Shown here one piece after another: positions 1 through 8,098 of a DNA stretch of 8,098 nucleotides. Within the stretch, counting starts at the first letter, position 1; the number at the start of each line of letters is the position of its first letter. The notes under the pieces are model-generated. The model had not been told where the DNA came from. It made no database searches and worked only from the letters and a program-made list of their open reading frames with translations. This stretch comes from a virus (Duplodnaviria; Heunggongvirae; Uroviricota; Caudoviricetes). The stretch covers positions 1 through 8,098 of the IMG/VR virus record IMGVR_UViG_2531839474_000001; one strand, 5' to 3'. The position numbers were made by a program, and so were the translations under genes.

Positions 1-263
1 CGCGCCACTGTACATCTGGCCACCCTGATACCTTCGCGTAACAACTGGCGCCAGACTTTACGCACACCGTACACCTGATGATTTTCATCGTATACGCGCT
101 GTATCTCTCTCTTCAGCCAGTCATCGCGCTGAGCACGGGCACTGCGTTTATCAGGATGATGTCGCTGTTGCTGACAGTGGTAATACGTTGACGGGGCAAT
201 ATGCAGTTCACTGCATACCGGTCCGACCCCGTACTGCTCACGCAGCTTATCCAGCAGCGGCAT
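1..263 (-). CDS. IS3-family transposase OrfB (DDE catalytic part), N-terminal portion only; continues past the window edge
   Basis: Minus-strand frame -1 relative to orfA starts at an ATG overlapping the orfA stop and translates [88 protein letters not shown], consistent with IS629 OrfB. Open to position 1. Confidence 0.8.
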   Translation of the reverse strand, partial: MPLLDKLREQYGVGPVCSELHIAPSTYYHCQQQRHHPDKRSARAQRDDWLKREIQRVYDENHQVYGVRKVWRQLLREGIRVARCTVA

Positions 264-589
264 TATTTTTTCCAGAGGCGGTCGAACTCCGCCTTCGCAA
301 AATAAGCGGAAGCCTGGCGAAGGATATCGTTACTGCGGCGCAGTTCACGATTTTCACGTTCCAGCTCTTTCAGACGCTGACGTTCAGCGGTGGTGAGTCC
401 ACCATCACCACTCCCGGTATCCCGCTCATGCTGACGAACCCACACACGCAGAGTCTCTGGTGTACAGCCAATCTTTGGGGCAATGGAACAAATTGCCGCC
501 CATTGTGAGTCATATTCGCCCTGACTTTCCAGAACCATACGAACTGCCCGTTGACGGACCTCGGGGGAAAAACGTGTATTTTTAGTCAT
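263..589 (-). CDS. IS3-family transposase OrfA (helix-turn-helix, leucine-zipper part)
   Basis: 108-aa [54 protein letters not shown]...[28 protein letters not shown], matching my memory of IS629 OrfA. It ends in LWKK with an A-rich run (tggaaaaaataatg on the minus strand) at the overlap with orfB. Confidence 0.9.
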
Positions 590-667
590 CCTGTTTACCT
601 CTTTCTCAGGGAGTTTAGTCTCCAGGATTCCCGGGGCGGTTCAGTTCGGACTGAAAGGAGCAAGTGT

Positions 668-958
668 ATGACGGGCAAAGAGGCAATTATTCATTACCTG
701 GGGACGCATAATAGCTTCTGTGCGCCGGACGTTGCCGCGCTAACAGGCGCAACAGTAACCAGCATAAATCAGGCCGCGGCTAAAATGGCACGGGCAGGTC
801 TTCTGGTTATCGAAGGTAAGGTCTGGCGAACGGTGTATTACCGGTTTGCTACCAAGGAAGAACGGGAAGGAAAGATGAGCACGAACCTAATTTTTAAGGA
901 GTGTCGCCAGAGTGCCGCGATGAAACGGGTATTGGCGGTATATGGAGTTAAAAGATGA
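668..958 (+). CDS. hypothetical phage protein, possible winged-helix DNA-binding fold
   Basis: ATG at 668 is preceded by AAGGAG (655..660) at 7 nt spacing; 96 aa. The segment PDVAALTGATVTSINQAAAKMARAGLLVIEGKVWRTVYY resembles a wHTH recognition helix plus wing. The listed ORF 551..958 is an in-frame upstream extension into the IS end and is unlikely to be the real start. Confidence 0.55.
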   Translation: MTGKEAIIHYLGTHNSFCAPDVAALTGATVTSINQAAAKMARAGLLVIEGKVWRTVYYRFATKEEREGKMSTNLIFKECRQSAAMKRVLAVYGVKR

Positions 959-1038
959 CCATCTACATCACTGAGCTAATAACAGGCCTGCTGGTAATCG
1001 CAGGCCTTTTTATTTGGGGGAGAGTAAATCGTGGTTGA
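955..1038 (+). CDS. possible 27-aa hydrophobic peptide (MTIYITELITGLLVIAGLFIWGRVNRG)
   Basis: ATG at 955 overlaps the stop of the upstream gene (ATGA); it has a single predicted transmembrane segment. Too short for composition-based support. Confidence 0.25.
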   Translation: MTIYITELITGLLVIAGLFIWGRVNRG

Positions 1039-1237
1039 GTTGATTTTTTCTGCATTGAGGATTCTCGGTGCTATGTGGATGGTGGCGACGTTCATTGTGG
1101 TTGCCAGCAGTTTTGTCCGGCTGGTAGGCGAAGGTAAAGACCTGGTTGGTGTGCTTTTCGGTAGCATTTTCCTGTGGGTGATTATCGGTGTTGCGCCTGT
1201 CGCTGTAGCAAAAATGGCGTGGCGTTTTGTGAGTTGA
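1031..1237 (+). CDS. small hydrophobic protein, two predicted transmembrane helices (68 aa)
   Basis: GTG start at 1031 overlaps the end of the 27-aa ORF; a GGAGA-like SD lies upstream. Sequence MVELIFSALRILGAMWMVATFIVVASSFVRLVGEGKDLVGVLFGSIFLWVIIGVAPVAVAKMAWRFVS. It is co-oriented and ends 8 nt before ninB. Confidence 0.45.
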   Translation: MVELIFSALRILGAMWMVATFIVVASSFVRLVGEGKDLVGVLFGSIFLWVIIGVAPVAVAKMAWRFVS

Positions 1238-1244
1238 GGTGACA

Positions 1245-1691
1245 ATGAAGCAAATATACATGCTTCGCAACGAAGCAATCAGAAACAACGCCATAGACGC
1301 AATACTCTCACTTCCGATCGACGACAAGTCACCTCACGAAGTCCACATTAAAGAACCAAAGCGGAGCAATCCTCAAAACCGCCTTATGTGGGCGTTATTG
1401 CAGGACGTATCACGTCAGGTGCTTTGGCATGGACAGAGACTTGCGCCGGAGGACTGGAAAGACCTGTTCACTGCCCTGTGGCTTAAGACCAAAAAACTGG
1501 AGCAACGAAGTGTGCCTGGTATCGATGGTGGCGTTGTCATGCTTGGCGTGCGTACCAGCAAAATGCGAAAGGCCAGCATGACTGAGCTTATCGAAATCAT
1601 GTTTTGGTTCGGCTCAGAGCGCAACGTGCGGTGGAGTGATGACTCCCGGCGAGAGTATGAATGGTCACAACGAAAAGGTAGGGCTGCATGA
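1245..1691 (+). CDS. ninB: NinB (Orf-family recombination mediator)
   Basis: Translation MKQIYMLRNEAIRNNAIDAI...NPQNRLMWALLQDVSRQVLWHGQRL...[23 protein letters not shown] aligns along its length with lambda NinB as I recall it (MKKLTFEIRSP...DQNRKLWACLGDVSRQVEWHGRWL...GVKWSDEARLALEWKARWGDRAA). ATG 1245 preferred over the GTG at 1239; stop overlaps the next start. Confidence 0.9.
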   Translation: MKQIYMLRNEAIRNNAIDAILSLPIDDKSPHEVHIKEPKRSNPQNRLMWALLQDVSRQVLWHGQRLAPEDWKDLFTALWLKTKKLEQRSVPGIDGGVVMLGVRTSKMRKASMTELIEIMFWFGSERNVRWSDDSRREYEWSQRKGRAA

Positions 1692-2215
1692 CTATCAAAT
1701 CAAATACACCAGCACACGACAAGGACTGCTGGCAAACGCCGCTTTGGCTTTTTGATGCGCTGGATATTGAGTTTGGATTCTGGCTGGATTCAGCTGCGAG
1801 CGACAAAAATGCTCTGTGCGCTCACTGGCTAACTGAGGCCGACGACGCACTCAATTCTGAGTGGATAAGCCACGGTGCAATCTGGAATAACCCACCGTAC
1901 AGCAATATCAGGCCGTGGGTGGAAAAAGCCGCTGAGCAGTGCATACAACAGCGACAGACGGTAGTGATGCTTGTGCCAGAGGATATGTCTGTCGGATGGT
2001 TCAGCAAGGCTCTGGAGAGTGTTGACGAAGTTCGCATTATCACTGATGGACGGATTAATTTTATCGAACCATCGACAGGGCTGGAGAAGAAGGGAAACAG
2101 TAAAGGCTCCATGCTGCTGATTTGGCGACCGTTCATCAGTCCTCGACGGATGTTTACTACCGTATCCAAAGCGGCATTGATGGCGATCGGGCAGGGCGTC
2201 AGGAGGGCGGCATGA
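1688..2215 (+). CDS. phage Dam-like DNA N6-adenine methyltransferase
   Basis: 175 aa with the catalytic NPPY motif ([10 protein letters not shown]) and an N-terminal [17 protein letters not shown] region typical of the phage Dam family found in lambdoid nin regions. ATGA overlap with ninB stop and ninE start. No restriction endonuclease gene is adjacent. Confidence 0.8.
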
Positions 2216-2394
2216 GGCGACAGCGACGAAGTTTCACCGACATCATCTGCGAAAACTGCAAATACCTTCCAACGAAACGCTACAGAAATAAACGCAAGCC
2301 AATCCCAAAAGAATCTGACGTAAAAACCTTCAATTACACGGCTCACCTGTGGGATATCCGGTGGCTAAGAAATCGTGCGAGGAAAACAAGGTGA
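2212..2394 (+). CDS. ninE: NinE
   Basis: [60 protein letters not shown] is near-identical to lambda NinE from memory. AGGAGG lies 5 nt upstream of the ATG. The listed ORF 2122..2394 is an in-frame upstream extension. Confidence 0.9.
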
Positions 2395-2561
2395 TTGACC
2401 AAAATCGAAGTTACGAACAAGAAAGCGTCGAGCGAGCTTTAACGTGCGCTAACTGCGGTCAGAAGCTGCATGTGCTGGAAGTTCACGTATGTGAGCACTG
2501 CTGCGCAGAACTGATGAGCGATCCGAATAGCTCAATGTACGAGGAAGAAAACGATGAGTGA
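2391..2561 (+). CDS. ninF: NinF (Cys-rich zinc-ribbon-like)
   Basis: From GTG 2391 the product [56 protein letters not shown] matches lambda NinF ([28 protein letters not shown]...). GAGGA SD lies 7 nt upstream; the upstream ATG at 2349 would overlap ninE by 46 nt. Confidence 0.85.
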
Positions 2562-2823
2562 TTTCTCTGAGCTTATTTCCTTCAAAAAAGACAGAGAAGA
2601 AATGCGGACTGAATCTGTCTATTACGTTCAACACCGGAATAAACGCTCGGTGCTTGATCAGGAGTTGGTTATTACCGGAGACCTGGCATTCAGAACATAT
2701 AAGGCCAGCATGGAAATGAAGGATTTCCCTAAATGTGGTTCTGAAAGAGAAGCTGCGTTAAAGCTGGCTGAGTGGATGCAGAGAATGGCTGCTGCAATTG
2801 AGAATTACTGGAGTGAACCATAA
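2554..2823 (+). CDS. hypothetical nin-region protein (89 aa), function unknown
   Basis: Complete ORF translationally coupled at both ends (ATG overlaps the ninF stop; its TAA overlaps the next ATG). I do not recognise it as a lambda nin protein. Confidence 0.6.
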   Translation: MSDFSELISFKKDREEMRTESVYYVQHRNKRSVLDQELVITGDLAFRTYKASMEMKDFPKCGSEREAALKLAEWMQRMAAAIENYWSEP

Positions 2824-3113
2824 TGGCTAACCTACGCAAAGAAGCGCGCGGCAGAGAATGCCAGGTACGTATTTACGGCGTATGCAATGGCAATCCTGAA
2901 ACTACAGTTCTGGCACATTACCGGATGGCTGGAATTTGCGGAACGGGAATGAAGCCTGACGACCTGATCGGCGCATGGGCTTGTAGCGCGTGTCACGATG
3001 AAATCGACCGACGCACAATGATTATCGACAACAAAGATGCCAGACTTTACCACCTCGAAGGCGTGATCAGGACGCAGGCGATACTGCTGAAGGAGGGGAA
3101 GATTAAGTCATGA
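2823..3113 (+). CDS. ybcO: YbcO-like DUF1364 protein (putative metal-binding nuclease)
   Basis: 96 aa, MANLRKEARGRECQVRIYGVCNGNPETTVLAHYRMAGICGTGMKPDDLIGAWACSACHDEIDRR..., with the conserved Cys/His pattern I recall from DLP12 YbcO. Recognition is from memory. Confidence 0.75.
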   Translation: MANLRKEARGRECQVRIYGVCNGNPETTVLAHYRMAGICGTGMKPDDLIGAWACSACHDEIDRRTMIIDNKDARLYHLEGVIRTQAILLKEGKIKS

Positions 3114-3472
3114 ACGAATATCAGTTTGTGCTTCCATACCCGCCGTCGTTGAATACCTACTGGCGAAGACGGGGAAGCCAATACTACATCAGCGATAAAG
3201 GCCAGAAATACCGAAAAGACGTTCAGCAAATCATCCACCAACTCAAGTTAGATATTTTCACCAAATCACGACTCCGCATCAAAGTCATCGCAGACGTTCC
3301 AGACTCCCGCCGCCGCGACCTCGATAACATCCTGAAAGGTTTACTCGACTCCCTTATCCACGCCGGATTTGCGGAAGACGACGAGCAATTCGATGACATT
3401 CGCGTAATTCGTGGTGTGAAAGTACCAGGCGGAAGGCTTGGAATAAAAATCACCGAACTGGAGAACGCATGA
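3110..3472 (+). CDS. rusA: RusA Holliday-junction resolvase
   Basis: 120 aa; the motifs LPYPPSLNTYWRRRG, DVPDSRRRDLDNILKGLLDSL and GGRLGIKITELE match the RusA family (E. coli RusA: LPWPPSNNRYYRHNRG...PDRRRRDLDNLQKAAFDAL...GGRLELTITEM). Confidence 0.9.
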   Translation: MNEYQFVLPYPPSLNTYWRRRGSQYYISDKGQKYRKDVQQIIHQLKLDIFTKSRLRIKVIADVPDSRRRDLDNILKGLLDSLIHAGFAEDDEQFDDIRVIRGVKVPGGRLGIKITELENA

Positions 3473-3657
3473 ACGCCACAATTCAAACGATACCAGAGCT
3501 TCTTATCCATACACGAGGCAATCAGACCGAAGTGGCAAGGATGCTTTCCTGCGCAAGAGGAACAGTGCTCAAGTACAACCGAGACAGCAAAGGCGAGCGT
3601 CATGTAATAGTTAACGGCGTCCTGATGGTCAAACAGGGCAAGAGGGGAAGACGATGA
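3469..3657 (+). CDS. ninH: NinH
   Basis: 62 aa; TIPELLIHTRGNQTEVARMLSCARGTVLKYNRDSKGERHVIVNGVLMV matches lambda NinH (TIPDMLVEAYGNQTEVARRLKCSRGTVRKYVDDKDGKMHAIVNDVLMV). Start and stop both in ATGA overlaps. Confidence 0.85.
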   Translation: MNATIQTIPELLIHTRGNQTEVARMLSCARGTVLKYNRDSKGERHVIVNGVLMVKQGKRGRR

Positions 3658-4277
3658 GACTCGAAAGCGTAGCTAAATTTCATTCGCCAAAAAGCCCGAT
3701 GATGAGCGACTCACCACGGGCCACGGCTTCTGACTCTCTTTCCGGTACTGATGTGATGGCTGCTATGGGGATGGCACAATCACAGGCCGGATTCGGTATG
3801 GCTGCATTCTGCGGTAAGCATGAACTCAGCCAGAACGACAAACAAAAGGCTATCAACTATCTGATGCAATTTGCACACAAGGTATCGGGGAAATACCGTG
3901 GTGTGGCAAAGCTCGAAGGAAATACTAAGGCAAAGGTACTGCAAGTGCTCGCAACATTCGCTTATGCGGATTATTGCCGTAGTGCCGCTACGCCGGGCGC
4001 AAGATGCAGAGATTGCCACGGTACAGGCCGTGCGGTTGATATAGCCAAAACAGAGCAGTGGAGGATAGTTGCTGAGAAAGAGTGCGGAAGATGTAAAGGC
4101 GTCGGTTATTCAAGAATGCCAGCAAGCGCCGCATATCGCGCTGTGACGATGCTAATCCCAAACCTTACCCAACCCACCTGGTCACGCACTGTTAAGCCGC
4201 TGTATGACGCTCTGGTTGTGCAATGCCACAAGGAAGAGTCAATCGCAGACAACATTTTGAATGCGATCACACGTTAG
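3654..4277 (+). CDS. Q: late-gene antiterminator Q (lambda type)
   Basis: 207 aa, MRLESVAKFHSPKSPMMSDSPRATASDSLSGTDVMAAMGMAQSQAGFGMAAFCGKHELSQNDKQKAINYLMQFAHKVSGKYRGVAKLEGNTKAKVLQVLATFAYADYCRSAATPGARCRDCHGTGR..., essentially the lambda Q sequence as I recall it, including the Cys-rich zinc-binding region. Confidence 0.95.
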   Translation: MRLESVAKFHSPKSPMMSDSPRATASDSLSGTDVMAAMGMAQSQAGFGMAAFCGKHELSQNDKQKAINYLMQFAHKVSGKYRGVAKLEGNTKAKVLQVLATFAYADYCRSAATPGARCRDCHGTGRAVDIAKTEQWRIVAEKECGRCKGVGYSRMPASAAYRAVTMLIPNLTQPTWSRTVKPLYDALVVQCHKEESIADNILNAITR

Positions 4278-4319
4278 CGCCATGATTGCCACGGATGGCA
4301 ACATATTAACGGCATAATA

Positions 4320-4375
4320 TTGACTTTTTGAATAACTTTGGGGAAACTTGACACCAATAATGGGCGTTTTTTACA
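4320..4375 (+). promoter_or_regulatory. late promoter pR' with Q-utilisation (qut) region
   Basis: TTGACT (4320..4325), a 17-nt spacer TTTTGAATAACTTTGGG, then GAAACT (4343..4348). This is collinear with lambda pR' (TTGACT-TATTGAATAAAATTGGG-TAAATT-TGACTCAACGATGGG) and sits just downstream of Q. Similarity to lambda ends shortly after the expected transcription start. Confidence 0.6.
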
Positions 4376-4514
4376 TGTCATTGATGAGTCTCAATAACCT
4401 GCCGCCGAGTAGTTTTTATGCTCTGAATTGTATTTGTGTAGTAAACATGCTGACTGCAATGTAATAGAGTTTTTTTAGCCTGTAACCTCTTGACGGCATT
4501 GAATTGCTTTTGTT

Positions 4515-5225
4515 ATGAGTTGTAAGCCAATGTTATCATCTTGTATTGGGGTGGTTATGAAGGATGGTGCGCTGCTCAGGAGTTCTTCACTTTTTATTGC
4601 CTACATGGGATGCCTTGGATGGGGGAGTGCTTATTTCTATGGATGGGGTACTTCTTTTTACTACGGCTTCCCATGGTGGATTGTAGGTGCAGGTGTTGAT
4701 GATGTTGCCAGAAGTTTATTTTTTGCAGTTATCGTCATTGCTATATTTCTTATCGGTTGGGGTATTGGTGTTGTATTCTTTTTCGCAGTGAAAAGAAAAC
4801 ATTCTATGCAAGAGCTAAATGTATTTCGCCTTTATTTTGCTGTGGAATTATTGTTTGTGCCGGCAATTATTGAGTTTTCTATATTGAGACAGAAGATTCA
4901 GGTACCTCTTTTGCTACTGTCAGCAGCGATTGCGCTGGCGGTTACAATTTCGATAAGATCTTATGGGCGATTTTTATCGGTATCATGCTTCTATGATAAG
5001 CCATTTATAAAAAAACATTTTTTTGAGATTGTGATGATTGCTTTTGTGGCATATTTCTGGCTTTTTTCATTTCTGACAGGATATTACAAACCACAGTTTA
5101 AGAAAGAATATGAAATGATTAATTATAATGATGGTTGGTATTATGTTCTTGCTCATTATGATAATTGTCTGGTTTTGTCTACTTCTTTCAATGCAGGTAG
5201 TAAAAGGTTTGTCATTTATCAATAA
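4515..5225 (+). CDS. uncharacterised polytopic inner-membrane protein (cargo gene in the Q-S interval)
   Basis: Only long ORF in a clearly AT-rich stretch; 236 aa from ATG 4515 (alternative starts at 4530 and 4557, none with a strong SD). About five hydrophobic helices (e.g. SLFFAVIVIAIFLIGWGIGVVFFFAV, VPLLLLSAAIALAVTISI, FFEIVMIAFVAYFWLFSFLTG) and an aromatic-rich C-terminal tail. No recognisable family. Confidence 0.6.
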   Translation: MSCKPMLSSCIGVVMKDGALLRSSSLFIAYMGCLGWGSAYFYGWGTSFYYGFPWWIVGAGVDDVARSLFFAVIVIAIFLIGWGIGVVFFFAVKRKHSMQELNVFRLYFAVELLFVPAIIEFSILRQKIQVPLLLLSAAIALAVTISIRSYGRFLSVSCFYDKPFIKKHFFEIVMIAFVAYFWLFSFLTGYYKPQFKKEYEMINYNDGWYYVLAHYDNCLVLSTSFNAGSKRFVIYQ

Positions 5226-5406
5226 GCACAAGATAAGAATCTTCAGGTTGATATTGTAAGGACCAGAATTTAATTGGCTGCATAAATAATATTTTAAGTT
5301 GCAAGTTGGCTATTCGTAGGAATAGAACCTTAGGCATGCTGAATGCGTTTTCTGAACATTGTTTTATAAACTGTGTCTGCTTGCTGTTGTGATCCTGCTT
5401 TTAGTG

Positions 5407-5517
5407 ATGGTGATGATGGATTTCACCAGCAGGATAATGTTGGTACTGACTGATGGCGCTCTGGTCTGCGGCATTGTGGTATTGCTGTGGCCGATGATGA
5501 AAGAACAGAATGAATAA
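5407..5517 (+). CDS. possible small hydrophobic peptide (36 aa, MVMMDFTSRIMLVLTDGALVCGIVVLLWPMMKEQNE)
   Basis: Short ORF with one predicted transmembrane segment, lying antisense to a listed minus-strand ORF. No convincing SD; in-frame GTG/TTG alternatives lie upstream. Speculative. Confidence 0.2.
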   Translation: MVMMDFTSRIMLVLTDGALVCGIVVLLWPMMKEQNE

Positions 5518-5703
5518 TTCTTGACTTTTTTGTTTACTGTTTATTAAAAAATCAACCGCATGGTGAATCCTCCTTGGAGGGGCTAAATGATCGAGTTTTA
5601 AGGGCACGTAGCGAGTTCTGTTTGATCATTGCAGAACTTAGCGGGAGGCGCCATGCGTACATCACTAATGTTATTTCCTTCTATCATTTTCCTTGTGAGT
5701 TCT

Positions 5704-5730
5704 GGCTGCGCATGGCGCGGCCTTTTTTTT
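5704..5730 (+). terminator. rho-independent terminator (plus-strand orientation)
   Basis: GGCTGCGC (5704..5711), loop ATG, GCGCGGCC (5715..5722) forms an 8-bp GC-rich stem with one G-U pair, followed by a run of eight T (5723..5730). Confidence 0.6.
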
Positions 5731-5919
5731 ATGACCTGCCACTGGCAGATGGTCATCCTGTGATTTGATTCCGGTTCCGGCTTTTTAACTCTGTTCCTGT
5801 ACACGGGAGAAATTCTATGTCGATTAATCGTTATGATATTGGTTACAAGAAGTACCACGTATTGTGTTGAGATAGAAAGCATGGTGCCAGAGGTAAATGC
5901 AGCAGCATAATAAAAAAGA

Positions 5920-5959
5920 GCCAGCGCAGAAGAGAACGGGTAAAAGAGTCTGCGCTGGC
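5920..5959. repeat. perfect 11-bp inverted repeat (GCCAGCGCAGA / TCTGCGCTGGC) separated by 18 nt
   Basis: Arms at 5920..5930 and 5949..5959. A second small hairpin GGGG-ATATT-CCCC follows at 5962..5974. No T-run follows either, so it is not a canonical intrinsic terminator. Confidence 0.55.
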
Positions 5960-6075
5960 GTGGGGATATTCCCCGTGGAGAAATGATATGTAACACACAT
6001 CGGGAACCTTTCTATATAAACATTATCATTATTGTCAATCATAACAGTCAGGTATTATGACGTTTATGCATCAGG

Positions 6076-6104
6076 GCCATCAGGAATTAACTGGTGGCTT
6101 TTTA
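6076..6104 (+). terminator. rho-independent terminator about 35 nt upstream of the holin start
   Basis: GCCATCAG (6076..6083), loop GAATTAA, CTGGTGGC (6091..6098) forms an 8-bp stem with one G-U pair, followed by TTTTTATTG. Confidence 0.5.
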
Positions 6105-6138
6105 TTGTTGTCAGCTTCCGGATAACGGGAGACGGGGT

Positions 6139-6354
6139 ATGTACCAGATGGAAAAAATAACAACAGGTGTGTCATACACCACGTCAGCGGTGGGGACGGG
6201 ATACTGGCTACTGCAGTTGCTGGACAAAGTCTCTCCGTCCCAGTGGGTGGCAATAGGTGTGCTGGGAAGTCTGCTGTTTGGCCTGCTGACGTATCTGACA
6301 AATCTTTATTTCAAGATTAAAGAAGATAAGCGTAAGGCTGCGAGAGGTGAATAA
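6139..6354 (+). CDS. S: class II holin (phage 21 S-type pinholin) with dual-start motif
   Basis: From ATG 6139 the product [71 protein letters not shown] (71 aa) matches phage 21 S as recalled ([68 protein letters not shown]). A second in-frame ATG at 6148 gives the shorter form. Stop overlaps the endolysin ATG. Confidence 0.9.
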
Positions 6355-6851
6355 TGTCGCCGTCATTACGCAAGGCTGTTGCAGCTGCTATTGGTGGTGG
6401 GGCTGTTGCCATAGCGTCTGTGCTCATCACTGGTCCAGGTGGTAACGATGGTCTGGAAGGTGTCAGCTACATACCATACAAAGATATCGTTGGCGTATGG
6501 ACTGTATGTCACGGACACACCGGAAAAGACATCATGCCCGGTAAAACGTATACCGAAGCAGAATGCAAAGCCCTCCTGAATAAAGACCTTGCCACGGTCG
6601 CCAGACAAATTAACCCGTACATCAACGTCGATATACCGGAAACAACGCGCGGCGCTCTTTACTCGTTCGTTTACAACGTGGGCGCTGGCAATTTCAGAAC
6701 ATCGACGCTTCTTCGCAAAATAAACCAGGGCGATATCAAAGGCGCATGTGATCAGCTACGGCGCTGGACATACGCTGGCGGTAAGCAATGGAAAGGGCTG
6801 ATGACTCGCCGCGAGATTGAGCGTGAAGTCTGTTTGTGGGGGCAACAATGA
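6354..6851 (+). CDS. R: SAR endolysin (phage 21 R-type lysozyme with N-terminal signal-anchor-release domain)
   Basis: 165 aa; N-terminal Gly/Ala-rich weakly hydrophobic segment [20 protein letters not shown] followed by a lysozyme catalytic region ([25 protein letters not shown]). Near-identical to phage 21 R as I recall it. Confidence 0.95.
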
Positions 6852-7285
6852 GCAGGGTAACCGTTATTATCTCCGCTCTGGTTATCTGCATTATCGCCTG
6901 CCTGTCATGGGCTGTTAATCATTACCGTGATAACGCCATCGCCTACAAAGAGCAGCGCGATAAAGCCACATCCATCATCGCTGATATGCAGAAGCGGCAA
7001 CGTGATGTAGCAGAACTTGACGCCAGATACACAAAGGAGCTTGCTGATGCTAATGCGACTATCGAAAGTCTCCGTGCTGATGTTTCTGCTGGGCGTAAGC
7101 GCCTGCAAGTCTCCGCCACCTGTGCAAAGTCAACGACCGGAGCCAGCAGCATGGGCGATGGAGAAAGCCCAGGACTTACAGCAGATGCTGAACTCAATTA
7201 TTACCGTCTCCGAGGTGGAATCGACAAGATAACCGCGCAGGTTAACTACCTGCAGGAATACATCAGGACGCAGTGCTTAAAATAA
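6848..7285 (+). CDS. Rz: Rz i-spanin
   Basis: From ATG 6848, [39 protein letters not shown]...RLQVSATC...QCLK matches lambda Rz ([39 protein letters not shown]...). N-terminal transmembrane anchor plus coiled-coil periplasmic domain. ATGA overlap with the endolysin stop. Confidence 0.9.
7047..7232 (+). CDS. Rz1: Rz1 o-spanin (outer-membrane lipoprotein), embedded in the +1 frame of Rz
   Basis: AAGGAG (7034..7039) lies 7 nt upstream of ATG 7047. Product [36 protein letters not shown]... has a signal peptide, a lipobox-like VSAC and a Pro-rich mature part, as in lambda Rz1. The start could instead be 7017 or 7053. Confidence 0.75.
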
Positions 7286-7322
7286 TTTTAATTTCACTGA
7301 AATTTAACAAGTGACTTTCAGG

Positions 7323-7352
7323 AAAATGCCTCGCAGATGCGGGGCATTTTTG
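7323..7352 (+). terminator. rho-independent terminator after the lysis cassette, possibly bidirectional
   Basis: ATGCCTCGC (7326..7334), loop AGAT, GCGGGGCAT (7339..7347) forms a 9-bp stem with one G-U pair, flanked by AAAA upstream and TTTTT downstream. Confidence 0.6.
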
Positions 7353-7434
7353 TACCGGTATTTCACCGCGCACCGCAGCGCACAATAAACACCGAACCTG
7401 ACCCTTTGGAATGGGCCTTTGAGGATACCAGTTA

Positions 7435-8052
7435 GTGCTGGCGAGCCTCGGTGGGCTGGTTTCCTGTGCGGCAAAGGTTCATTTCAAAGAAGCAGGCAAC
7501 GCCATGAATGAATTAATTGCGAATCATGACTTCGACTTTCGCCAGTTAGTTACCGCAGCAGAAGGTCAACCGGTAACTGACACCTTCCAGATTGCCAGGG
7601 CATTTGGTAAACGCCATCAGCATGTGATTAGGGCTATTAAATGTTTGAGATGTTCTGAGGAATTCTCGACAACCCATTTTTGGGCCGTCGAGAAAATCAA
7701 TGACTTAGGGATTTTTGACAAGAAACAGATTTACTACCGCATGGACTTTAGTGGCTTCGTTATGCTGGTTATGGGATTTAACGGGGCAAAAGCCGATGCT
7801 GTTAAAGAAGCCTATATCAATGCGTTTAACTGGATGTCAGCAGAACTCCGTAAGTACAGCGAAAGTTATGAAGCAGAACGTAACGCCGTAATGCTGGAGT
7901 ACATGAAAGAGAAGGATGTCGCCAGCATGTCAGGCCGTCTGCTCAATCGCTGGGGGAGAACGAAAAAACCTCAATTGCTTGCAAAGCTGGAACGTCTGGA
8001 GAGACAGGGACAGTTTTTATTACCGGGATTCGATAAAGGTATTCAAGCCTGA
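7435..8052 (+). CDS. Rha-family phage regulatory protein (often annotated as antirepressor)
   Basis: The segment PVTDTFQIARAFGKRHQHVIRAIKCL...YYRMDFSGFVMLVMGFNGAKADAVKEAYINAF resembles the Rha domain (compare SSREIAELTGKQHKHVLRDI in known Rha proteins). GTG start at 7435 has a GAGGA SD about 9 nt upstream; ATG 7504 (MNELIANHDF...) is an alternative start. Confidence 0.65.
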   Translation: MLASLGGLVSCAAKVHFKEAGNAMNELIANHDFDFRQLVTAAEGQPVTDTFQIARAFGKRHQHVIRAIKCLRCSEEFSTTHFWAVEKINDLGIFDKKQIYYRMDFSGFVMLVMGFNGAKADAVKEAYINAFNWMSAELRKYSESYEAERNAVMLEYMKEKDVASMSGRLLNRWGRTKKPQLLAKLERLERQGQFLLPGFDKGIQA

Positions 8053-8098
8053 CACATTATGCGCTGTATCGTCGCCGTATTCCCGCATTAACCATGAC

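Follow-up and report, generated by a model that had tools for sequence, protein, structure and literature searches.

A mosaic late regulatory and lysis module, with a lambda-type Q, a variant pR' and an S21/R21-family lysis cassette, in a probable lambda-like Escherichia coli prophage

The window analyzed here is a stretch of 8,098 nucleotides (nt) from a virus of the Caudoviricetes (IMG/VR record IMGVR_UViG_2531839474_000001, positions 1 to 8,098), and the region in question runs from the late-gene antiterminator gene Q to the spanin genes Rz/Rz1. On the forward strand it contains, in order, Q, the late promoter pR' with the qut site, a membrane-protein gene, a DUF3927/TciB-like gene, a terminator, an esterase stump, a second terminator, the holin gene S, the endolysin gene R, and Rz with the embedded Rz1 (Table 1). 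With high confidence, the region comes from a lambda-like Escherichia coli prophage and is its late regulatory and lysis module, built from cassettes that assort independently. The original prediction, which was made from the same DNA, had joined a lambda-type Q and pR' to a phage-21-type cassette of pinholin and signal-anchor-release (SAR) endolysin. That description is right at the family level, but in our alignments lambda and phage 21 are not the nearest relatives, which are HK97-like phages for the nin-Q segment, phages 434 and 2B8 for the cargo, and Shiga toxin (Stx) phages together with phage 434 for S-R. The alignments place at least five joints in the module, at ~4352-4364, 4395/4396, 5841/5842, ~6071-6145 and ~6960. 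The chromosome of E. coli strain SLK172 (NZ_CP017631) matches positions 643-8098 of the window at 99.9% identity. The SLK172 locus is flanked by cI/cII/O/P-type early genes on one side and by lambda-type terminase, portal and protease genes on the other, and, unlike the window, this prophage is without the insertion sequence (IS) element at the left end.

Q belongs to the lambda type, as had been predicted. It is identical to lambda Q at 202 of 207 residues (97.6%), matches the Pfam family PF03589 at 184.9 bits (cut-off 26.7), and matches the solved lambda Q structures 7UBM, 4MO1 and 7UBJ with E values of ~1e-135 (for 7UBM, 1.4e-135 over residues 1-207). In contrast, global alignment of Q with Q21 and with the Q82-like Q of phage 434 finds no similarity. 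The claim that phage 21 has a Q of different specificity also agrees with the comparison, in which Q21 is unrelated and the annotated Q-binding element of phage 21 is a different one. As described in the structural study, lambda Q is composed of a helix-turn-helix body and a zinc-ribbon arm (PMC9388147). The zinc-ribbon cysteines 118, 121, 144 and 147 are retained at the positions they occupy in lambda Q, and the residues of the helix-turn-helix body are the same except for I205. Four of the five differences from lambda Q fall in residues 135-140 (positions 4054-4074), where the window reads QWRIVA, the prophage of E. coli O157:H7 EC4115 QWGIVA, phage 2B8 QLGRVA and lambda LWGRVV; natural lambda-type Q alleles vary chiefly in this patch. 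The arm tip of lambda Q that touches sigma region 4 is given in the same study as residues 133-137 (PMC9388147), and the patch sits at and beside this tip. This polymorphic patch and the altered -35-like and pause elements of the window may have co-adapted. Among the records compared, one deposited as "Campylobacter phage CJLB-4" (GenBank MW057783; 48,361 bp) gives a Q-region match equal in identity and coverage to that of the lambda records and looks like lambda DNA renamed.

The elements of pR'/qut are all present, in the lambda order, within positions 4320-4361. The region was aligned with its counterparts in lambda, HK97, mEp506, P22, Emek and 2B8, which gives seven lambda-Q-type late regions including that of the window. 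TTGAATAA and the TTGGG of the spacer are invariant in all seven, and the differences lie in the spacer centre, the -10 element and the pause hexamer. The last two elements read TAAATT and AACGAT in lambda, HK97, mEp506, P22 and Emek, whereas they read GAAACT and AATAAT in the window; AATAAT is nearer to the consensus than AACGAT. The window also has one additional base between the -35-like and pause elements compared with lambda. The functions of these elements are predicted from homology, with the element roles taken from PMC9388147, and transcription would start at 4355/4356. Since the exact register of the 13-bp lambda Q-binding element is not readable from the text of that paper, we make no claim on which of its positions differ. 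Judged by this alignment, the pR' of the window is a variant allele of the lambda promoter and not a copy; the predicted match to lambda holds element by element, and the -10 GAAACT and the pause element AATAAT mark the allele. The 171-bp promoter-leader joint is present in 572 of 5,426 complete E. coli genomes, among them many O157:H7 strains, and in 556 of these the identity is at least 99%, which indicates that the variant allele is no local accident.

The similarity to lambda begins at 3644, 10 bp ahead of Q and at a recombination boundary marked in the lambda record, and it ends at 4352. The seven late regions are conserved through the pause element and the following GG, after which they enter three unrelated leaders (lambda/mEp506, P22/HK97/Emek, and the window/2B8). 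This split right after the pause element places a joint immediately behind the qut core, ~7-9 nt past the predicted start of transcription. The argument that the junction has to lie downstream of qut is therefore borne out, with the similarity breaking off at 4352-4364, directly behind the pause element. Upstream of Q, the nin region with its DUF1364, RusA and NinH genes is HK97/mEp506-like at ~96% over 2821-4363, and because this similarity continues from 2821 to 4363/4364, the Q cassette is set in an HK97-like and not a lambda-like nin region. The leader segment bridges the end of the lambda/HK97-type similarity and the onset of phage 434-type similarity, and positions 4396-5841 are 97.9% identical to the cargo of phage 434. 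The joint at 5841/5842 is a deletion of the esterase gene carried by phage 434, 2B8, EC4115 and Stx phages. Positions 5775-6158 match phage Evi, which carries yet another Q, and the Stx2 phage 1717 shares 98-100% identity with the window from 6071 or 6110 up to 7260. Identity to phage 21 is ~50% at the start of S, 90-100% through R and 38-70% beyond ~6960; from there on the window matches P22 gp15/HK97 Rz instead, at 92-98%.

The lysis genes are of the families that had been predicted, and the search for a lambda-type S or R in the window found none. S matches PF04971 ("P21 holin S") at 112 bits (cut-off 26) and is not alignable with lambda S. It is identical to S21 at 52 of 71 residues (73%), while its S68 form is 100% identical to S68 of phage 434. 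Two possible starts, Met1 at 6139 (71 amino acids) and Met4 at 6148 (68 amino acids), have the same spacing as in S21. Of the two segments of the protein, the one at residues 37-53 is strongly hydrophobic; the one before it is weakly hydrophobic and has many Gly, Ser and Thr residues. S retains G40, S44 and G48, which we take, in the numbering G40xxxS44xxxG48, to be the glycine-zipper-like motif of the second segment of S21. R is the part of the cassette that is close to phage 21: it is identical to R21 at 157 of 165 residues (95.2%) and unrelated to lambda R. It matches PF00959, the T4-lysozyme fold family, at 155.8 bits and the solved structures 3HDE and 3HDF (R21) and 4ZPU (RrrD) with E values of ~1e-107 (3HDE, 4e-107). 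The catalytic residues E35, D44 and T50 are retained, and the SAR N-terminus is nearly identical to that of R21, with 59% Gly, Ala, Ser and Thr in residues 9-25. The co-occurrence of a PF04971 holin and an R21-type endolysin agrees with the internal consistency claimed for this lysis module. The match of S and R to phage 21 stands for the families S21 and R21 and for the close identity of R, but S itself is identical to S21 at only 73% of its residues. The identities of the Q and lysis genes to these families lie well outside what chance would produce. Rz has a transmembrane segment at residues 4-23; its first ~110 nt are lambda/phage 21-like and the rest is of the P22 gp15/HK97 type. Rz1 carries the lipobox VSAC, and its mature part is proline-rich. 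The phage-21 label consequently does not extend to the distal two thirds of Rz/Rz1, which are of the P22 gp15/HK97 type.

A single recent crossover between lambda and phage 21 in the cargo gap would account for the identity of Q to lambda Q (97.6%) and of R to R21 (95%). This scenario is refuted by the breakpoint map and is hardly credible: the joints number at least five, S shares 73% identity with S21 but 100% with S68 of phage 434, Rz/Rz1 belongs to the P22/HK97 type, the sequence flanking Q (2821-4363) resembles HK97/mEp506 and not lambda, and the cargo matches phage 434 and O157 prophages. The cargo had been placed exactly at one recombination joint. Accessory genes do fill the 1.7-kb gap between qut and S, which is the usual moron slot of lambdoid phages, but the joints number at least five and not one. 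Across 4200-5400 the G+C content drops from ~0.51 to 0.32-0.40, a fall that sets the cargo apart as foreign to the DNA on either side.

Two strong intrinsic terminators lie between pR' and S, the first of them ~1.35 kb downstream of the predicted start. Their folds have z values of -2.85 (5704-5730) and -3.28 (6073-6105), the phage 434 record annotates a terminator at each of these positions, and terminator-like hairpins occur at 8 sites compared with 3.3 +/- 1.8 in shuffled sequences. The terminators proposed earlier at 5704-5730 and 6076-6104 are thus recovered, each as a hairpin with a T run, a z value near -3 and a match to the phage 434 annotation. The homologue of the promoter-proximal terminator of phage 434 has a 4-nt deletion and substitutions relative to phage 434, with two stem positions gone, and its fold z is -0.4 to -0.6 in the window versus -3.2 in phage 434. 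No intact tR' was found within ~70 nt of the predicted start (4356-4425), where the folds are no better than those of shuffled sequences.

Table 1. Features of the module and of its left flank (+, forward strand; -, reverse strand).
Feature	Position	Strand	Evidence or comparison
Q, lambda-type late-gene antiterminator, 207 amino acids	3654-4277	+	Identity to lambda Q, PF03589, lambda Q structures
pR' -35, TTGACT	4320-4325	+	Lambda: TTGACT
pR' 17-bp spacer with predicted Q-binding element, TTTTGAATAACTTTGGG	4326-4342	+	Lambda: TATTGAATAAAATTGGG
pR' -10, GAAACT	4343-4348	+	Lambda: TAAATT
-35-like element (qut), TTGACA	4348-4353	+	Lambda: TTGACT
Predicted sigma-dependent pause element, -10-like (qut), AATAAT	4356-4361	+	Lambda: AACGAT
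Leader segment	4362-4395	+	Among the phages compared, shared with 2B8 only
Eroded homologue of the phage 434 promoter-proximal terminator	4396-4420	+	Alignment and folds
Cargo gene, multi-pass membrane protein, function not assigned	4515-5225	+	phrog_1521 (function not assigned)
DUF3927/TciB-like small membrane protein, 52 amino acids	5359-5517	+	PF13064, 53 bits; phrog_1470
First strong intrinsic terminator	5704-5730	+	8-bp G+C-rich stem (hairpin 5704-5722), then T8
SASA/NanS-p sialate esterase, 3' remnant, ~85 nt	5842-5927	+	Deletion joint 5841/5842
Second intrinsic terminator, directly upstream of S	6073-6105	+	Hairpin 6073-6101 and T run
S, class II holin, S21 pinholin family	6139/6148-6354	+	PF04971 "P21 holin S"
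R, R21-type SAR endolysin, 165 amino acids	6354-6851	+	PF00959, R21 identity, structures
Rz, inner-membrane spanin	6848-7285	+	PF03245, 119.8 bits
Rz1, outer-membrane lipoprotein spanin	7047-7232	+ (+1 frame inside Rz)	phrog_3198, E 3e-28
IS3-family element end (IS629/IS1203-like)	1-642	- (orfA, 263-589)	ALIL frameshift pseudoknot RF01497, 120.9 bits, 192-308 (-)

The activities of Q, S, R and Rz/Rz1 are assigned from family membership, and on that basis the module would work as follows. The structural study describes lambda Q loading in terms of the Q-binding element, the pause element, a repositioned sigma region 4 and the arm tip 133-137 (PMC9388147). By analogy, Q produced from the early rightward transcript would bind the element between the -35 and -10 of pR' (4326-4342) with its helix-turn-helix body and zinc-ribbon arm. 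It would contact sigma region 4, repositioned onto TTGACA (4348-4353) just upstream of the pause element, and would load onto RNA polymerase held at the sigma-dependent pause set by AATAAT (4356-4361). Once modified by Q, the polymerase would no longer respond to either terminator (5704-5730 and 6073-6105), and transcription would continue through S, R and Rz/Rz1 into the genes that follow. S21 forms holes so small that a cytoplasmic endolysin does not pass, and depolarization frees SAR endolysins (PMC6116005). R would accordingly be expected to be exported by Sec and to stay tethered to the membrane, inactive, through its SAR domain, until accumulated S forms small holes and depolarizes the membrane, upon which R would be released and activated. 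Rz/Rz1 would then disrupt the outer membrane.

One of the closest known relatives of the module is phage 2B8 (Lambda_2B8; LR595859/NC_049952), which has the same Q allele class, is identical to the window over pR'/qut and the leader (100% over 4150-4420), carries the same cargo genes (98% over 3644-5841) and has S and R at 98.7% over 6145-6854. It differs from the window in that it keeps the SASA esterase gene and a mobile-element gene between the cargo and S, has another allele of Rz (~75% identity), and has NinG and NinI upstream where the window has RusA and NinH. In the study from which 2B8 derives, phages were obtained as plaques on indicator strains (PMC6969025). This origin, together with the shared promoter and S-R genes, suggests that the variant promoter and the lysis genes work. 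The O157:H7 strain EC4115 (NC_011353) contains the same Q, pR' and cargo at 98%, but it keeps the esterase, and its holin is followed by a YdfR-family gene and a truncated glycoside hydrolase. In phage 434 (OL657226), the cargo matches over 4396-5841 at 97.9%, both terminators are annotated, and S68 and R are 100% and 98.8% identical to those of the window; in contrast, its antiterminator is Q82-like with its own promoter, its promoter-proximal terminator is intact, the esterase is kept, and Rz/Rz1 is of the lambda type.

Lambda itself (NC_001416) shares Q (97.6%) and the order of the pR'/qut elements, but it has the -10 TAAATT, the pause element AACGAT and a 194-nt leader that ends in tR', a class I holin S, an R that is a transglycosylase and not a SAR protein, and NinI directly before Q. 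Phage 21 (OL657228) has an S of the same family (73% amino acid identity), an R at 95.2% amino acid identity and the order S-R-Rz/Rz1. It differs from the window in the unrelated Q21 with its own Q-binding and pause elements, in tRNA genes in the cargo slot, in lambda-type Rz/Rz1, and in the antiholin start of S21-71 (MKS versus MYQ in the window). With the Stx2-converting phage 1717, only the lysis cassette (S-R-Rz/Rz1) matches, at 98-100% over 6110-7260, and the esterase and other genes that lie upstream of S in phage 1717 are not found in the window. A lambda-type Q is likewise found together with a SAR endolysin of the R21 type (94% amino acid identity) in the P22-like Salmonella phages Emek and PS34. 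Emek has a Q with 95% DNA identity and the same Rz type, whereas its holin is only 30% identical and its tR' is intact ~40 nt after the start.

Several features weigh against a late module that functions in the canonical way. The first position of the -10 element is G in the window, whereas it is T in lambda and the other lambda-Q-type phages compared, and the promoter may therefore be weak. Unlike in the canonical cassette, no stable terminator stands near the promoter, so that the first ~1.35 kb of the transcript may not need Q. The longer S product begins MYQ-M, without Lys or Arg in the extension, in contrast to MKS-M in S21-71, which makes a charge-based antiholin role of the long form doubtful. 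The change of TCA to TAA at 5223-5225 makes the cargo membrane protein 16 amino acids shorter than in phage 434 and O157:H7 EC4115; the same change is found in SLK172, where the gene is annotated as frameshifted. The IS3-family element interrupts the replication gene P at 642/643, 29 nt short of the gene end. This insertion, taken together with the nonsense codon in the cargo gene, suggests that the prophage may be defective as a phage, possibly in replication, although the open reading frames of the late module are all intact. Such a defect does not alter the identity of the module.

From these features it could be argued that the prophage is defective and the module a relic, intact in sequence, that no longer brings about phage lysis in this host, with only parts such as the cargo genes or small RNAs kept for the benefit of the host. 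The IS element that cuts P at 642, the nonsense codon and the erosion of the promoter-proximal terminator fit this interpretation, as do the deletion of the esterase gene and a frameshifted replication gene in the close relative, strain SLK172. However, none of Q, S, R, Rz and Rz1 is truncated and each keeps its key residues, phage 2B8 from the plaque-recovering study carries this Q-pR' allele and these S-R genes, and the IS insertion affects replication and not the late module; we regard a relic as somewhat unlikely. The erosion of tR' allows another interpretation, in which pR' acts in the lysogen as a Q-independent promoter of the cargo (the membrane protein, the TciB-like peptide and an STnc100-like RNA) up to 5704-5730 and Q is needed only beyond that point. 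The pR' of lambda is constitutive. The PR' of Stx phages is likewise constitutive (PMC7547250). No stable hairpin is present in 4356-4425 (z -0.4), the first strong terminator is that at 5704-5730, and a full-length sub-threshold match to the small RNA family STnc100 ends exactly at this terminator, all of which speak for this interpretation. Nevertheless, the -10 element is weakened, Rho-dependent termination is possible in the untranslated leader, and the cargo may instead be transcribed from a promoter-like site at 4510-4539, so that cargo expression from pR' without Q appears unlikely. A more specific form of this idea, that the late promoter has a second purpose as a Q-independent lysogen promoter for a 1.35-kb cargo unit ending at 5704-5730, with the Q checkpoint more than 1 kb downstream and possibly with co-adaptation of the Q arm tip at 135-140, is in our estimate quite unlikely. 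We favor the reading of the region as a late regulatory and lysis module assembled from independently assorting cassettes.

The arrangement is ordinary and is already known and annotated. At least 80% of 3654-7285 is present in 236 of the 5,426 complete E. coli genomes, and phage 2B8 and the phages Emek and PS34 show comparable arrangements. That Q types, cargo and lysis cassettes assort independently has long been described and is a defining trait of lambdoid phages, and the epsilon34 genome paper reported a lambda-type Q/qut in P22-like phages along with three non-homologous types of holin and three types of lysin (PMC2629481). The module is a clean example of lambdoid modular exchange, and its importance beyond correct annotation is small. 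It illustrates that the Q-qut unit moves as one cassette of ~720 bp, with the joint right after the pause element, and that accessory genes accumulate between qut and the lysis genes. A modest question is whether the variant promoter and the missing proximal terminator affect the expression of cargo or downstream virulence genes in lysogens, including the O157:H7 strains with the same allele, as they could.

Among the remaining features, the IS3-family element carries an ALIL pseudoknot, which is the sole Rfam match above threshold in the window and lies outside the Q-to-Rz module. Within the module, Rfam gave nothing at or above a curated threshold, only sub-threshold matches to STnc100, Esr41, SorX, asX2 and GcvB, and tRNA genes, which are present in the cargo slot of phages 21 and mEp506, were not found in that slot here. 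The 236-residue cargo membrane protein matches no Pfam family and only PHROG families without a known function; the likely start of its gene is the ATG at 4530 or 4557. The promoter-like site at 4510-4539 (TTGTTA, an 18-nt spacer, and TATCAT preceded by TG) lies just 5' of the probable ATG at 4557, which is served by the ribosome-binding site GGGGTGG, and the site could provide the cargo with a promoter of its own. An antisense open reading frame at 5598-5996 (-; 132 amino acids), annotated as hypothetical in SLK172, straddles the terminator and the deletion joint; it has no PHROG match and was rejected as probably spurious. The STnc100 match (5528-5733, +) scores 37.7 bits against a gathering score of 47, with an E value of 1.6e-5 for the whole window. 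It begins just past the DUF3927 gene and may represent a prophage-borne small RNA or the 3' untranslated region of the cargo transcript. A weak match to the enterohemorrhagic E. coli small RNA Esr41 at 5910-5999 (-; 32 bits against a gathering score of 102) coincides with a minus-strand hairpin and T run, and may be a decayed relative or a chance similarity.

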